64,000 nt of DNA from a virus (IMGVR_UViG_3300032312_001225:1187-65186), one strand, 5' to 3'. Counted from the first letter of the stretch, positions 1 through 35,763 are shown. A program made the numbers and translations. The notes: generated by a model from the letters alone, not told the origin.

Positions 1-19
1 CTTAGGCGACAGTGATACT

Positions 20-5369: not shown

Positions 5370-6398
5370 ATGCAAATTATCAAAGATACCAACGGGTTTC
5401 CCTATGCATGGAAAGCCGGCCGAGTTGAACAATTAATACGTAACATACTAGAAAACAAAGCACAACAACAGCTTGGCTGTGAACGTGTGATGTTTATCAA
5501 TCCTACCTGGCTACACGAAAACGACATAGCCAAAAAAATTGAAGCAGCCAACCCTGATTTTATTATCTGTCATAATTTTGTAGATCCTGCTGTGCCAAGA
5601 ATATTTAGAACCATTGAGCAATCAGGTCGTCCTTATCTTATCTTGGGCAATGCTGATCAATATCGCCTGGACTTTTGGGCCATGGTATGCGATTTGTATT
5701 TTCAAAACTACGAAGAATATCATGTGCCTGTTATGGATACTGCACGTAAGTTTATATGCTTGAATCGTAAACCACATCCGCACAGAGTATCGCTTGTGAA
5801 CGAATTGCTAGCAGCCGGTTTGCAAGAACAAGGATTTGTGAGCTTGGGCTTGCCTGGAGATCGTGCCATAGTGCTAGATGAAACATTTGATGGCGCCCAA
5901 GGTATCCATGACGAATACGGACAACTTGGCGCCGACGAAACTTGGGTCAGTCATAAAATACGCAACGATATTTTTAGCCTAGGTGACATGAATATATGGC
6001 AGAACAGTTTGTTGTGTCTAGTTACAGAAACAGAATTTAATAACCGTTATCCTAAGAATTTTTTTGCCAGTGAAAAAACATTCAAACCCATACTTGGCAT
6101 GCGACCATTTTTTGTCTACGGTCAGGCACCCTTGCGTGAACATCTCAAACAGCAAGGATTTGATGTGTTTGATGATGTGTTCAATTATGCCACCATTGAT
6201 GAAAGCACCGGAGATCCACGTAGGCAGTGGCAGTATGCTCAAGTGGCCATTGCTGCCATAAATGCAGTTGGTAATCCTGCTCATGAATATCAACAAAAAT
6301 ACTTTGGTCGTTGCCAATACAATAAAAATCATTTTAGAAACTATGCATACAATCAGTGGAAAAGATTGTATGACTTAGATTTAACCAACTATGTTTAA
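5370..6398 (+). CDS. putative glycosyltransferase (GT10/fucosyltransferase-like C-terminal motif)
   Basis: KFICLNRKPHPHR and LVTETE...SEKTFKPILGMRPF...GFDVF; shared with 7152-8126 and 30303-31382. Confidence 0.5.
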   Translation: MQIIKDTNGFPYAWKAGRVEQLIRNILENKAQQQLGCERVMFINPTWLHENDIAKKIEAANPDFIICHNFVDPAVPRIFRTIEQSGRPYLILGNADQYRLDFWAMVCDLYFQNYEEYHVPVMDTARKFICLNRKPHPHRVSLVNELLAAGLQEQGFVSLGLPGDRAIVLDETFDGAQGIHDEYGQLGADETWVSHKIRNDIFSLGDMNIWQNSLLCLVTETEFNNRYPKNFFASEKTFKPILGMRPFFVYGQAPLREHLKQQGFDVFDDVFNYATIDESTGDPRRQWQYAQVAIAAINAVGNPAHEYQQKYFGRCQYNKNHFRNYAYNQWKRLYDLDLTNYV

Positions 6399-31389: not shown

Positions 31390-31608
31390 ATGATAAAAGA
31401 AACTCGTGCATCAGAAGTAGACGTTGAGAAGTGTATTGCAAAAACAGGTTTTGGTCGGTTTGATCTAGTGGTTGCAGCCGCCCAGCGTGTGCGTGAACTT
31501 AAAATACGTGCTAGAGAATCTGGACAACATATATCGGCAGTAGACGCATTGCTAGAAGCACAAAACGGTCAGCTGAATGTGGTTGATTATATGGCCAAGG
31601 TAAAATGA
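31390..31608 (+). CDS. rpoZ: RNA polymerase omega subunit-like protein
   Basis: 72 aa: DVEKCIAKTGFGRFDLVVAAAQRVREL...SAVDALLEAQNG matches the omega pattern (RF.LV..AA.RAR.L...AL.EI..G). Confidence 0.75.
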   Translation: MIKETRASEVDVEKCIAKTGFGRFDLVVAAAQRVRELKIRARESGQHISAVDALLEAQNGQLNVVDYMAKVK

Positions 31609-32081
31609 AATCCAAGTTGGTCAAAGCATATATGAAGACTGCAGAAACATTCGCAGAGCTCAGTCATGCTAGGCGCTTGCATGTAGGTGCTATTGTGGTC
31701 AAGGATGATAGAATTATCAGTATTGGCTACAATGGCATGCCGGCAGGGTGGAATAACAACTGCGAAGATAAGATATACTCCAATGATTACACAGACAACA
31801 TTGGTTACTGGGAATATCAAGAGGAAGACGGCACCGCATACAACTTAAAAACTAAACCAGAGGTATTACATGCTGAAACAAATGCTATTGCAAAACTGGC
31901 GAGAAGCAGTGACAGTGGCTTGGGTGCTGATTTGTTTGTCACTCATAGTCCTTGCTTGGACTGCGCCAAACTCATTTATCAGTCAGGTATTAGTCGTGTT
32001 TGGTATGGTGTTGAATATCGTAGTAGCGACGGACCTGATTTTCTTAGACGATCAGGTGTAGAAGTAAATCGAGTAGACTAG
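31605..32081 (+). CDS. dCMP deaminase
   Basis: VGAIVVKDDRIISIGYNG, HAETNAI, SPCLDCAK. Confidence 0.9.
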   Translation: MKSKLVKAYMKTAETFAELSHARRLHVGAIVVKDDRIISIGYNGMPAGWNNNCEDKIYSNDYTDNIGYWEYQEEDGTAYNLKTKPEVLHAETNAIAKLARSSDSGLGADLFVTHSPCLDCAKLIYQSGISRVWYGVEYRSSDGPDFLRRSGVEVNRVD

Positions 32082-32087
32082 TAATAC

Positions 32088-32177
32088 GGAGAGCTGGCCG
32101 AGCGGCTGAAGGCACCGGTCTACTAAACCGGCATAGTGGCAACATTATCTAGGGTTCGAATCCCTAGCTCTCCGCCA
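32088..32177 (+). tRNA. tRNA-Ser with ACU anticodon
   Basis: GGAGAGC/GCTCTCC, CCGGT-CTACTAA-ACCGG, long variable arm ATAGTG-GCAA-CATTAT, G73, CCA. Confidence 0.85.
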
Positions 32178-32182
32178 AATAT

Positions 32183-33478
32183 ATGTTAAAAAACACATTC
32201 TGTTCAAGCCCGTGGTTTCATATTAGATTAACTTACGATGGTAGTTATGATGTGTGTCGCTGGAGTAAAAACGGAGTCACTGATTTTAACATACGTACAA
32301 CATCATTGATGCAGTTTTACAACAGTGAACCTATGCGAGACTTGCGAGAACAACTGTTGGCAGGCAACAGGCCACAGGCTTGTGAGCCCTGTTATTATCA
32401 AGACAGTTTTGGTAAACTATCAGGACGTGTTAGACAACTTAACAAAAGTGCTATCACAATGCAGGAGTTTCCGTTAACTTTTCGCTCAAGCCCTCACTTG
32501 CCTGTGTTTGAATACAGCAACGATAACAAGGGTGCATCGAGTCATTTTCCTACAGACTTACAAATAGACCTAGGCAACACTTGTAATAGTGCTTGCATCA
32601 TGTGTGACCCTACTGCAAGCAGTCGACTGGTAGCAGACTATAAAAAACTAAACAAGTTAGATAACAAGTTATTTGCAGAACCTCAATTGTATCGATCTTG
32701 GACAGAAGATCAGCAGGTAGTTGATCGTTTTGTTGCAGAGCTGCAATCATTCCCATACATACGTTACATACACTTCTTGGGAGGTGAAACCTTATACAAT
32801 CAAGCCTTTTACGACATCTGCGAGAACTTAGATGGTCAAGACCTTATAGTTGGTACAACTACCAACGGCACCATATACGACGAACGCATTGAACAGTTGA
32901 TACCTAGATTCAAAGAGTTTCACTTGGGTATCAGCATAGAGTCAGTTACTGGTTTAAATGACTATGTACGTTACCCAGGCCCTACCGATCAGATTTTGAC
33001 AAACATTCTCAAATTTGTTTCCTTGCGTGATCGTAATCCCAGCCTCAAACTAGAACTCAGAATAACTCCTAACTTGTTTACTATCAGTGAATTGGATCAA
33101 GTGTTTGAGTTCATGATCCGGCATGACATCATTGCAGAGAGTTGTAACATCTTACACCAACCCAGAAGCCTACGCATGGAGCTCATGCCAGAAGATATTA
33201 GACAAGAGACTATTAGCAAGTTACAGGCCGTAGTTGATCGCTTGGGCAAGTACACTCCGCAAGTTAATACTCGTAGATCAGATTTAAGTCAGCAGATCAT
33301 TGCACAATTAGCAAATGAGTATTTGGAGTTTGTTAAAACATATACTCGACCTGCTGACGCTGAAGAATCACTAACAGAATTAGTCACGTTTTTAAAAAGT
33401 TTTGAATCAATCAGGAATAACACAATACTAGATTATGCACCAAGATATACAGACTTTCTCAGACATATTGGATATTGA
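32183..33478 (+). CDS. radical SAM protein
   Basis: FCSSPW...VCRW...CEPC; CNSACIMC; FLGGE. Confidence 0.88.
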   Translation: MLKNTFCSSPWFHIRLTYDGSYDVCRWSKNGVTDFNIRTTSLMQFYNSEPMRDLREQLLAGNRPQACEPCYYQDSFGKLSGRVRQLNKSAITMQEFPLTFRSSPHLPVFEYSNDNKGASSHFPTDLQIDLGNTCNSACIMCDPTASSRLVADYKKLNKLDNKLFAEPQLYRSWTEDQQVVDRFVAELQSFPYIRYIHFLGGETLYNQAFYDICENLDGQDLIVGTTTNGTIYDERIEQLIPRFKEFHLGISIESVTGLNDYVRYPGPTDQILTNILKFVSLRDRNPSLKLELRITPNLFTISELDQVFEFMIRHDIIAESCNILHQPRSLRMELMPEDIRQETISKLQAVVDRLGKYTPQVNTRRSDLSQQIIAQLANEYLEFVKTYTRPADAEESLTELVTFLKSFESIRNNTILDYAPRYTDFLRHIGY

Positions 33479-33818
33479 CACTTGTGATCAATTGCAAGTG
33501 CAATTGGTTGTTGAGCCTCACGGCTCCGTACATTATCGTATGCGTCTTAACGGGCATTTGATATCTGATCTAGACACAACATATAACTTGAGTCTTTTCA
33601 GCGTGGTCAAACTGCGTTGCGAGATTTTTGATACTGCCCAGGGTGCTGTAGAAATCAAACTGTTGAGCATAAATGGGCAAGAAATATTACCACGATATCA
33701 GCATTTGGCCACGCCACCGACAGCATGGATTGATCAAACTGGCACATGGGAATTTGATATCTGTGGCCCATTTTATCCGTGGTTTCATAGGATTTCTGGG
33801 CAGGGTTGGGTTGCGTAA
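33435..33818 (+). CDS. hypothetical protein
   Basis: 127-aa ORF overlapping the end of the radical SAM gene. Confidence 0.5.
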   Translation: MHQDIQTFSDILDIDTCDQLQVQLVVEPHGSVHYRMRLNGHLISDLDTTYNLSLFSVVKLRCEIFDTAQGAVEIKLLSINGQEILPRYQHLATPPTAWIDQTGTWEFDICGPFYPWFHRISGQGWVA

Positions 33819-33839
33819 CATAGATTTATAGTGTATACT
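33811..33839 (+). promoter_or_regulatory. sigma70-like promoter for the putative ncRNA
   Basis: TTGCGT-17-TATACT. Confidence 0.6.
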
Positions 33840-33841
33840 AG

Positions 33842-34112
33842 TATACGAGTTAACAAGTTTGGGCACATGGTGTGGCGACCATCTGATACTTGTGGTAGTC
33901 CTGTTGTAGTAGGCAGTATTGGCCCCGTGGCATGGAAATGTTAAATCGGGTACTCCCGAGGGTACAAGCAATTTTAAAACAGCAACAGTGATCAAGATTC
34001 CATGAAAAAGCCTGGGAAGGCGAGCCTTTTAGTGCGGGATAGCGACCCGTAGGCATTGTGGTCCACAGTCGAAAAGCAGATTTTAGTGTGCCTAAACTTG
34101 TTGTCTTGTATA
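33842..34112 (+). ncRNA. unidentified ~265-nt structured RNA
   Basis: Ends pair: TATACGAG..AACAAGTTTGGGCAC with GTGCCTAAACTTGTT..CTTGTATA; several internal helices; fills the whole intergenic gap. Confidence 0.65.
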
Positions 34113-34116
34113 AATA
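34109..34116 (+). promoter_or_regulatory. T4 late promoter consensus TATAAATA
   Basis: Exact consensus upstream of the DctP paralogue; GGAG RBS follows. Confidence 0.65.
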
Positions 34117-34144
34117 CTCTATATAGTCCATATCGGAGATCCCC

Positions 34145-35131
34145 ATGAATCAAAAGAAAAAAATCACCTGGTTAATAGCACACGAACCTGTAAATTTGTT
34201 TTTACGTACTGCCGAAGCATTCAAAGAAAAAATTGCTGAATTGACTGATGGCAAATTTGAAGTGGAAATCTATACACCATCTGAAATTGAATCTAAAGTT
34301 ACTAACAAGGATCTAAAAGATTCAAGTTTGTCGTATAAAACAGATCCAATGGTCCTATTAGATTCAGAAGATATTCAGATGAGCCAGTTGCATATTACCG
34401 AACTAGCACGTTGGCACAGCCCAGAATTTTTAGCACTTGAAATGCCATTTATTTTTCAAAGTCACGAACATGCAACTCGTGTATTAGAAGGCCCAATTGG
34501 CCGTAAAATGTTAGATGACCTAAAAGACAAAAGTCCGGCACGAGGAATGGAATTTACCTACTCAGGTGGCTTCCGTTGTATGGCTAGTGAAAACCCAATT
34601 AATAATCTAGCAGGACTTGCAGGACTTGAATTTGCTACTACTTACAATCCTGTAACTATGGATACTTGCGAAGCAATTGGCGCCGTACCAAAAATATTTG
34701 CAATAAAAGATATGTATGTTAATAGAGAATTTTTTAAGCAAGAAGGTAATAATGCTGATGTATTAGAAACAACTATTCCTCGTTACCTTGCCCAATTTAA
34801 AGATTCAAGCAAGAAATATTTAATCAACACCAAACATAATTTATTTCTAACAAGTATTATTATTGGCAATACCTTTTGGGACACACTAAGTGCAGACGAA
34901 CAATCTAAATTTAGCGAGGCATGTGCCTATGCAAGTAGATTAGAACGTAAGTGGTCTGTTGAAGAAGCTGAAGAATTTGCTGCTAAAAAAGATCACAGTG
35001 ACATAGGTGTAGTTTATACAGAACTAAGTGAGGAAGATACTGCTAAGTTCAAACAGGCAACAGCTTCACTGTACGACAAATATCGAGACTTCTTCTACCC
35101 AGGACTCATTGACGGAATTATTAAATCCTAA
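34145..35131 (+). CDS. DctP-like TRAP solute-binding protein, intact, no signal peptide
   Basis: ITWLIAHEP, LALEMPFIFQSHEHA, YSGGFR, HNLFLTSIII..FWDTLS; aligns with 23804-24289 plus the C-halves. Confidence 0.8.
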   Translation: MNQKKKITWLIAHEPVNLFLRTAEAFKEKIAELTDGKFEVEIYTPSEIESKVTNKDLKDSSLSYKTDPMVLLDSEDIQMSQLHITELARWHSPEFLALEMPFIFQSHEHATRVLEGPIGRKMLDDLKDKSPARGMEFTYSGGFRCMASENPINNLAGLAGLEFATTYNPVTMDTCEAIGAVPKIFAIKDMYVNREFFKQEGNNADVLETTIPRYLAQFKDSSKKYLINTKHNLFLTSIIIGNTFWDTLSADEQSKFSEACAYASRLERKWSVEEAEEFAAKKDHSDIGVVYTELSEEDTAKFKQATASLYDKYRDFFYPGLIDGIIKS

Positions 35132-35135
35132 TCTT

Positions 35136-35663
35136 GTGAATTCACCGTTTCAAGAAACAATCAAAACAATAAAATTCAAAACATTTTATCATAATCAGAC
35201 AGTAACATTTGATTATGATAATCTGTTTTATGAACGACGTGTTGTTGTGTTTTCGTTAACACAGTTTCGGACTATCTGCTCGGGGCGATATTTACAAGGT
35301 TATATAGACAATTATAGATGCCTTTTAAAAAAAGGAATAGACGACGTTTATGTAGTTGACTCCACTGACAGATTAATTGGTCCATACATGGACAAAAAAA
35401 CAAACTTAATAAAATCTTTACCTGATAGTGACATGCTATTTGTTAGTGCTCTAGCCAAACATTACAATTATCAAAAAACAGCAACAGATCTAGCTAGATT
35501 TTGGCAGTATATTGTAGTAGTTAACAATGGAGAACCAGAAAAACTCTGGCACAATCCTTTTAAAGAAGGAGCCAAGTTAGCTGCTCTAAAGAACCAAGAA
35601 TACCGATATAGAAAATTATCAGCTGACGTTGTTTTAAACTATCTCGTTGACAATCAAACATAA
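35136..35663 (+). CDS. redoxin / peroxiredoxin-5-like protein (divergent)
   Basis: VVVFSLTQFRTICS (cf. PGAFTPTCS), GIDDVYVV, LPD, WQYIVVVNNG; probable GTG start at 35136. Confidence 0.55.
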   Translation: MNSPFQETIKTIKFKTFYHNQTVTFDYDNLFYERRVVVFSLTQFRTICSGRYLQGYIDNYRCLLKKGIDDVYVVDSTDRLIGPYMDKKTNLIKSLPDSDMLFVSALAKHYNYQKTATDLARFWQYIVVVNNGEPEKLWHNPFKEGAKLAALKNQEYRYRKLSADVVLNYLVDNQT

Positions 35664-35689: not shown

Positions 35690-35763
35690 GCCCCTTTAGT
35701 TAAATGGTATAACAGTTGATTTGTAATCATCAATTAGCAGTTCGATTCTGTTAAGGGGCACCA
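35690..35763 (+). tRNA. tRNA-Thr (UGU)
   Basis: GCCCCTT/AAGGGGC, loop TTTGTAA, A73, CCA. Confidence 0.9.

Follow-up and report, generated by a model that had tools for sequence, protein, structure and literature searches.

Positions 33849–34105 on the + strand of the window, the 64,000-nucleotide stretch of viral DNA analysed here (IMGVR_UViG_3300032312_001225:1187-65186), are, judged by comparison with related sequences, a genuine gene whose predicted product is a multi-helix non-coding RNA of about 257 nt rather than a protein. As modelled, the RNA is 257 nt long with 13 helices, and it is very probably a stable, independently folding, trans-acting RNA that one clade of uncultured freshwater jumbo phages carries in its tRNA expression module. 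Among the genes of the window are those for a T4-type large terminase, GroEL, a helicase and ten tRNAs, and its terminase is nearest to those of the jumbo phages PA5oct, Phosso and Atu_ph07 (about 54% identity). The features that characterize the new family are a score above 220 bits with the covariance model R1, the P1 clamp, the GUGGCG loop, the bulged-U P3, the CGAAAAG loop and the tRNA-Ser/tRNA-Thr position; the window copy scores 269 bits (E=1e-75) and shows each of these features of structure and synteny. The family appears to be new, with neither an Rfam 15 family nor a motif-matching paper found: for the RNA, Rfam 15 gave no match in a search of the whole window at the gathering score or of 33700–34250 at E<=10, and none at E<=5 in four relatives, and a full-text literature search with two invariant motifs returned no paper describing the RNA. 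The preliminary description of this DNA had called the class of the RNA unknown, and the Rfam search bears this out.

The first relatives came from a search anchored on the DctP gene, which gave three related contigs, and further ones from scans for invariant-block patterns in IMG/VR and, once, in JGI metagenomes, giving 20 distinct sequences. They originate from freshwater metagenomes or IMG/VR phage contigs (108–357 kb), and the lowest pairwise identity among these homologues is 62%. The DNA of the RNA gap is 92% and 80% identical to that of two relatives, against 78% and 63% for the neighbouring DctP protein, and this higher conservation of the gap counts in favour of an RNA gene. Model R1 finds exactly one copy in each of five large contigs, two of which are 98–100% complete genomes of about 355 kb. 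A blastn search with the RNA element against 50,697 GenBank phage records gave zero matches, and on the cultured jumbo phages nearest by terminase (PA5oct, Phosso, Atu_ph07 and Vibrio 2.275.O) R1 returned noise of at most 11.5 bits. A search for relatives through the 127-aa protein of the upstream reading frame found none, and a scan with a two-anchor core pattern added zero members. Among the pattern hits, L012, L015, L021, L025, L053, L054 and L057 fell in coding DNA by chance and were dropped, and a scan of genome contigs with a 23-nt invariant pattern gave a single hit, likewise by chance, within a coding region of a Pyrinomonadaceae MAG.

The RNA lies in a gap of 326 nt that separates the 127-aa ORF (33435–33818) from the DctP-like gene (34145–35131). 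No open reading frame is common to all 20 homologues, their lengths range from 257 to 268 nt with differences that are not multiples of three, and codon periodicity is slight, with 44, 44 and 54 variable columns at the three positions. A 98-aa ORF on the minus strand (33850–34146) was considered as a coding gene and rejected, as it is not conserved in the relatives. In the alignment of the 20 sequences G.U or U.G occupies 155 cells and A.C or C.A only 2, which identifies the + strand as that of the RNA. The same asymmetry bears on a DNA-level element, that is a miniature inverted-repeat transposon, a replication origin or a recombination site with 18-bp inverted repeats, which would account for the perfect terminal inverted repeats and the conserved sequence. 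Such an element is refuted by the strand-asymmetric wobble pairs, and the covarying internal helices, the single copy per 355-kb genome, the fixed syntenic position and a promoter sitting exactly at the 5' end also speak against it, leaving it with practically no probability.

The fold model was built by hand from compensatory changes and was tested on a MAFFT alignment and on alignments fitted to the model, the final one being A6. In A6, with 20 sequences and the 13-helix model, 97.2% of 1,477 cells form standard pairs, and changes on both sides are seen in 32 of the 74 pairs, corresponding to 124 compensatory cells. Homologues with covarying helices, on which the preliminary description had let its proposal depend, are thus at hand (20 collected, 32 compensatory pairs). 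Not one of 500 shuffled controls reached the pairing and compensatory values of the model, sliding the partners by 1–3 columns lowered the pairing to 36–40%, and 95.7% pairing with 27 compensatory pairs was already obtained with the MAFFT alignment, in which no fitting to the model is involved. Every modelled pair is canonical in the window sequence, for which the energies are -72.9 kcal/mol (model), -79.7 (constrained optimum) and -82.8 (unconstrained MFE), and the unconstrained MFE structure has few pairs in common with the model. Single-sequence folding gave -92.2 kcal/mol (z = -3.5) for the + strand and z = -2.2 for the - strand; this beats chance modestly and is suggestive only, and the comparative data carry the case. 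Single-sequence folding is in fact misleading for this RNA, which explains why about half of the helices first proposed from the window alone are wrong.

The architecture consists of P1, P2 and the bulged-U helix P3 stacked in series, leading to a three-way junction and from there to two branched domains. The closing clamp P1 (33851–33868 with 34086–34103, helix 1) has 18 bp, is 99.4% paired and contains 8 pairs changed on both sides; its outer 10 bp are almost invariant in sequence and the inner 7 covary freely. A pairing of the ends over about 23 bp had been proposed from the window, of which these 18 bp with their 8 compensatory pairs stand, and the outer 8 bp (TATACGAG/CTTGTATA) do not, being mostly upstream of the expected transcription start. 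P1 is followed by the hairpin P1a (GGU-GUGGCG-ACC, 33869–33880, helix 2), with two of its three pairs compensatory and with a GUGGCG hexaloop that is invariant across the members; this is what remains of the helix first read as ATGGT/ACCAT, the outer two pairs of which belong to P1 and P2. P2 (33881–33885 with 34077–34081, helix 3) and P3 (33888–33895 with 34063–34069, helix 4) are both defined comparatively and are separated by an internal loop of invariant columns, in which AU between the 5' strands of P2 and P3 faces CGAAAAG at 34070–34076. The bulged U of P3, at 33891, is invariant. The helix had been noticed earlier as a possible long-range pairing of TGTGG with CCACA, and it is now documented with its bulged U and with pair 42:237, which occurs as UA in 8, AU in 7, CG in 1 and GC in 1 of the sequences.

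Helix P3, with 3 bp, a bulged U and 4 bp, has the same shape as helix P4 of RNase P, and a loose resemblance to RNase P RNA had been noted at the outset from size, closing stem and a bulged pairing. The reading that corresponds to it is a strongly reduced RNase P RNA acting on the many pre-tRNAs of the phage. The RNA has in common with RNase P RNA the association with tRNA genes, here a tRNA cluster, the single-bulged-U helix with A-rich joiners beside it and a length in the range of minimal forms, and a UGG-containing loop could pair with CCA. The P4 of RNase P is a long-range pseudoknot between CR-I and CR-V that crosses P2. The bulged-U helix of the present RNA (A6 columns 40–47/233–239) is instead nested within P2 (33–37/247–251) with no such P2/P4 crossing, the CR-I, CR-IV and CR-V motifs and a specificity domain are absent, and the CR-I-like GGUAGUCC of the window is not conserved in the relatives. 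In addition, the Rfam models of RNase P (bacterial A/B, archaeal, type T and nuclear) and MRP are silent at E<=10 for the window RNA and at E<=5 for four relatives, and the five related contigs have no gene for a C5-type protein. The RNase P reading is thereby largely refuted and retains very little probability.

The rod formed by P1, P2 and P3 could also recall a 6S-like RNA that would sequester the RNA polymerase of the host as a decoy, the second class named at the outset, for which an abundant early σ70 expression would be plausible and a long terminal rod is at hand. An omega gene (rpoZ) had been placed 2.3 kb upstream of the RNA. An ORF of 72 aa is present at this distance (31390–31608), but its match to Pfam RNA_pol_Rpb6 is sub-threshold (20.4 bits, where 26 is the cut-off; E=5e-4) and it has no PHROG, so that it is at most possibly omega-like. 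There is no Rfam 6S hit, the only interruption of the rod is an internal loop of 2/7 nt instead of the large central bubble by which 6S RNA mimics an open promoter, and beyond the rod comes a three-way junction whose two branched domains are invariant in sequence, while what 6S RNAs conserve is their shape and not their sequence. A 6S-like function is accordingly very improbable, though marginally less so than an RNase P.

P4 (33898–33910 with 33979–33992) comprises helices 5 and 6, and all 5 pairs of helix 6 are compensatory. It carries AGUA/GAA in 16 of the 20 sequences, and since AGUA opposite GAA is the signature of the loop-E or sarcin-ricin bulged-G motif, we infer that P4 contains a motif of this type. 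The window and the three relatives nearest to it have Watson-Crick GUU/AAC in place of AGUA/GAA; this clade has lost the signature, and the motif can therefore not be essential. P5 (33922–25 with 33960–63) encloses two hairpins, together helices 7–9: P6 (33930–33 with 33938–41), with a GGAA tetraloop and 3 compensatory pairs, and P7 (33946–50 with 33955–59), with an invariant UACU loop. The domain had first been drawn with GTACTC/GGGTAC inside CATGGAA/TTCCATG, and neither helix survives. For the former the hairpin is actually UCGGG-UACU-CCCGA, in which G-C changes to A-U in 5 sequences, and of the latter the 5' part forms the GNRA-capped P6 and CCAUGA pairs with UUGUGG in P8, with two compensatory changes. 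P5 is followed by the single-stranded joiner ACAAGNAAUUUUAAA (33964–33978), which is highly conserved with invariant columns and for which no pairing partner could be shown.

The other domain is closed by P8 (34000–05 with 34056–61), which encloses P9, P10 and P11 (helices 10–13 together). P8 was invariant in the first 18 sequences and was confirmed by the addition of L058 (CCGUGA/UUGCGG, A-U to G-C) and L055 (CUAUGA/UUGUAG, C-G to U-A). P9 (34010–13 with 34018–21) is capped by a GGGA tetraloop, and its hairpin GCCU-GGGA-AGGC takes the place of a GCCT/AGGC junction with an AAGG-CGAG-CCTT hairpin in the preliminary description. P10 (34024–26 with 34052–54) and P11 (34034–38 with 34046–50, loop U-N-G-C-N) are likewise comparative, and P11 is the GCGGG/CCCGT hairpin recognized from the start. 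Two more of the early helices have no counterpart in the fold: TGATACT/AGTATTG enclosing CCTG/TAGG is not confirmed by the comparative model, and for AGTC(C)TGT with GCAGATT the 5' partner is not conserved. In all, the fold has two to three GNRA-capped hairpins. A GCAA-capped hairpin is found in L008/L013/L018, L026 and L055 at one site after P4 (A6 columns about 66–86), and its occurrence in three separate lineages would point to a peripheral tetraloop arm that was either gained more than once or lost several times.

Several further readings of the conserved elements were tried and dropped: a K-turn or box C/D motif in CUGA...GAAAAG, since G37 is bound to C244 within P2; a hammerhead core, since CUGAUAC is without G8 A9; pairing of the UACU loop of P7 with AGUA, which is broken in L004 and L058; pairing of the P1a loop with the P11 loop, which is inconsistent across members; and an in-frame AGU repeat of some members, which is not conserved. 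An all-against-all listing of column pairs in 18 sequences was too noisy and revealed no tertiary pairs. As many as 45 of the 109 unpaired columns are invariant, which together with the invariant outer 10 bp of P1 suggests specific contacts and a conserved partner.

A σ70-type promoter (TTGCGT-17-TATACT) can be read at 33811–33816 and 33834–33839 on the + strand, and transcription is expected to start at about 33845–33847, 2–6 nt before P1. The promoter was missed by a simple scanner because this requires 4/6 matches per hexamer and 9/12 overall. The site is the one given in the preliminary description, and equivalents with TTGNNN-16..18-TATAAT/TATACT are located at the same distance from the closing helix, ending 6–9 nt before it, in 15 of the 20 members. 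The remaining five lack a promoter and have the CCA of tRNA-Ser 2–13 nt upstream of the RNA start. Wherever genes separate tRNA-Ser from the RNA, the latter has its own promoter.

The conserved neighbours are, according to ARAGORN, tRNA-Ser(ACU) upstream (32088–32177, +) and tRNA-Thr(UGU) downstream (35690–35763, +). A tRNA-Ser(GCU or ACU) is found upstream in every member except the L008 group, and tRNA-Thr(UGU) downstream in 13 of the 17 members outside that group, which are all those whose DNA reaches that far, so that the order outside the L008 group is tRNA-Ser(GCU/ACU), RNA, tRNA-Thr(UGU) where the DNA extends far enough. In seven sequences (six distinct) tRNA-Thr(UGU) starts about 15–22 nt past P1; in other members a DctP-like or another protein gene comes next, and in the L008 group it is a different gene again; a product beginning MKIGLFGDSY... 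is encoded where the next gene is neither tRNA-Thr nor DctP. The window has a radical SAM/SPASM gene (32183–33478) and the family-less 127-aa ORF (33435–33818) between tRNA-Ser and the RNA, and the DctP-like gene followed by a peroxiredoxin-like gene (block 34145–35663) between the RNA and tRNA-Thr. The unit of tRNA-Ser, RNA and tRNA-Thr is tight in L010 and L032 and near-tight in L031, and in the window protein genes are inserted.

The tRNA genes themselves show some peculiarities. The tRNA-Ser has the anticodon ACU (A34) in the window and in L002, L010, L014, L020, L022, L028, L031, L033 and L058, and GCU at this locus in other members, and tRNA-Phe(AAA) and tRNA-Leu(AAG) are present in L031 and tRNA-Leu(AAG) in L055. 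The several A34 tRNAs suggest an A34-to-inosine deaminase of wide specificity, phage-borne or from the host. The window encodes a 158-aa deaminase with a CDA fold (31605–32081), labelled dCMP deaminase in PHROGs and dCMP_cyt_deam_1 in Pfam, that ends 7 nt before tRNA-Ser(ACU). L020 has at 5988–6063 a tRNA with a two-base 'anticodon' (ac) according to ARAGORN, which may be an odd or degenerate tRNA.

Downstream of the RNA, the T4-late-promoter-like motif TATAAATA (34109–34116, +) precedes the DctP-like gene. Already proposed as the late promoter of the next gene, it gains support from the TAAATA-type motif that recurs 3' of the RNA in most homologues, before a tRNA or a protein gene alike; its presence before tRNA-Thr implies late-phase transcription of this tRNA too. 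No terminator was found after the RNA in the window, and with neither a terminator nor an adjacent tRNA the 3' end in the window needs some cleavage, or the RNA stays on the DctP message. A cis-acting leader, riboswitch-like or a processing element for the downstream DctP mRNA or tRNA-Thr, would be consistent with this arrangement, as the element always immediately precedes a gene or tRNA on the same strand and no terminator intervenes, and the early promoter of the window would transcribe DctP too. The downstream partner, however, varies between tRNA-Thr, DctP and a different gene, and these changing neighbours show that the RNA is not a fixed DctP leader. Moreover, P1 closes the fold and leaves no alternative expression platform or terminator, the ribosome-binding site of DctP lies unsequestered about 30 nt past P1, the late-type promoter motif separates the RNA from the next gene, and 257 nt with 13 helices far exceed what processing needs. 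A leader function is hence improbable, and the stand-alone, promoter-driven multi-helix RNA of the preliminary description is upheld, with no conserved ORF and with a downstream gene that differs between members.

Our best guess from these sequences is that a stable trans-acting RNA is matured together with the tRNAs and binds a conserved partner. Host RNA polymerase would make the RNA early, alone or co-transcribed with the tRNAs, and tRNA-processing nucleases would then release it, RNase P through its 5' cut on the next tRNA, with endo- and exonucleases trimming back to P1, where the long, fully paired clamp should shield the ends from exonucleases. P2, the AU/CGAAAAG loop, the bulged-U P3, P8 and the GUGGCG loop would make up the invariant core. 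Provided that the RNA is real, this core might, as a tentative proposal, be the docking surface for a conserved partner, a protein or a tRNA 3' end, that takes part in translation or tRNA metabolism, and the RNA would then be a scaffold or decoy during host take-over and not a cis regulator. T-box RNAs and L15 of RNase P bind NCCA ends by base pairing, and in a similar way UGGC of the invariant P1a loop may pair with the 3' end GCCA that G73 tRNAs carry, the adjacent tRNA-Ser among them. In five related contigs Ro/TROVE (PF05731) is absent, with positive controls that matched, and genes for RNase III, a CCA-adding enzyme and the RNase P protein were likewise not found; DUF2828 (PF11443) gave no match there either, a weak result as no positive control matched. 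No phage-encoded candidate partner was thus found, which makes a host component or the tRNAs the likelier targets.

Less likely than docking to a partner, though not negligible, is an RNA-only machine of the phage tRNA module, which might be a ribozyme or tRNA-binding RNA of a new kind or else a small particle of the ROOL/GOLLD type that assembles itself. In the former version the bulged-U helix and the CGAAAAG and GUGGCG loops would capture or act on tRNA 3' ends. In either version an RNA-only machine, if it proves true, would give phage RNAs a new functional class. To our knowledge RNAs that combine a large, intricate fold with an invariant core are rare. Those large ornate RNAs that are understood have turned out to be ribozymes, riboswitches or the cores of RNA-protein machines.

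Among the known RNAs, the Y RNA/Ro60 system was rejected for want of a TROVE gene in the five related contigs and of an Rfam hit, tmRNA as ARAGORN finds none in the window and Rfam gives no hit, and SRP RNA as it has no Rfam hit. A screen for structured RNAs in IMG/VR phage contigs has yielded 8,495 candidates from DNA viruses (PMC10690425); a 257-nt RNA linked to tRNA-Ser/Thr is not described in the text of that paper, and the locus may be among its 8,495 unnamed candidates.

In phage T4, rnaC (species 1, 139 nt) and rnaD (species 2, 119 nt) are also small stable RNAs, encoded inside a tRNA cluster and on its strand and presumably freed by tRNA-processing enzymes, and T4 also has adjacent tRNA-Ser and tRNA-Thr. 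The two are adjacent and together span 264 nt (L059 1409–1672), which is near the size of the RNA described here. They differ from it in that they are located after tRNA-Arg and not between Ser and Thr, and rnaC ends in the T-arm-like GGGTTCGAATCCC, a sequence not present in our RNA, which is one 257-nt unit with an 18-bp clamp. With filters off, R1 gave at best 12 bits in T4 69500–74500, from a trivial hairpin, and at most 7.5 bits for rnaC and rnaD.

ROOL and GOLLD are elaborately folded RNAs known from phages and prophages, often encoded close to tRNA islands; they assemble into multimeric cages made of RNA alone and have no known protein partner (bioRxiv 10.1101/2024.12.08.627333). A self-assembling ornate RNA like these, with its function residing in a homo-oligomer that possibly holds tRNAs or ribosomal parts, would fit the niche shared by all three, next to phage tRNA islands (bioRxiv 10.1101/2024.12.08.627333), and also the many GNRA loops, the invariant joiners without an intramolecular partner and the failure to find a partner protein gene in the related contigs. 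A conserved self-complementary UUUUAAAA tract, of which the self-pairing is kept through G.U in L004, would fit as well, but part of this tract is already taken by P4. The present RNA has 257 nt, which is less than half the size of ROOL (ROOL and GOLLD are 2–3 times larger), and Rfam gives no match and no similarity to either in sequence or structure, the folds being unrelated. Such self-assembly is therefore unlikely, although somewhat less so than a cis-acting leader. What the stable trans-acting RNA that we favour adds to these systems is a compact RNA of 257 nt that is defined by covariation and has a precise niche between tRNA-Ser and tRNA-Thr of freshwater jumbo phages. Together with rnaC and rnaD of T4, ROOL and GOLLD, it adds to the indications that structured RNAs still lacking an explanation are frequent in phage tRNA islands, and its small size suits in-vitro transcription, probing, cryo-EM and binding assays, so that the role of tRNA-island RNAs becomes more directly testable.
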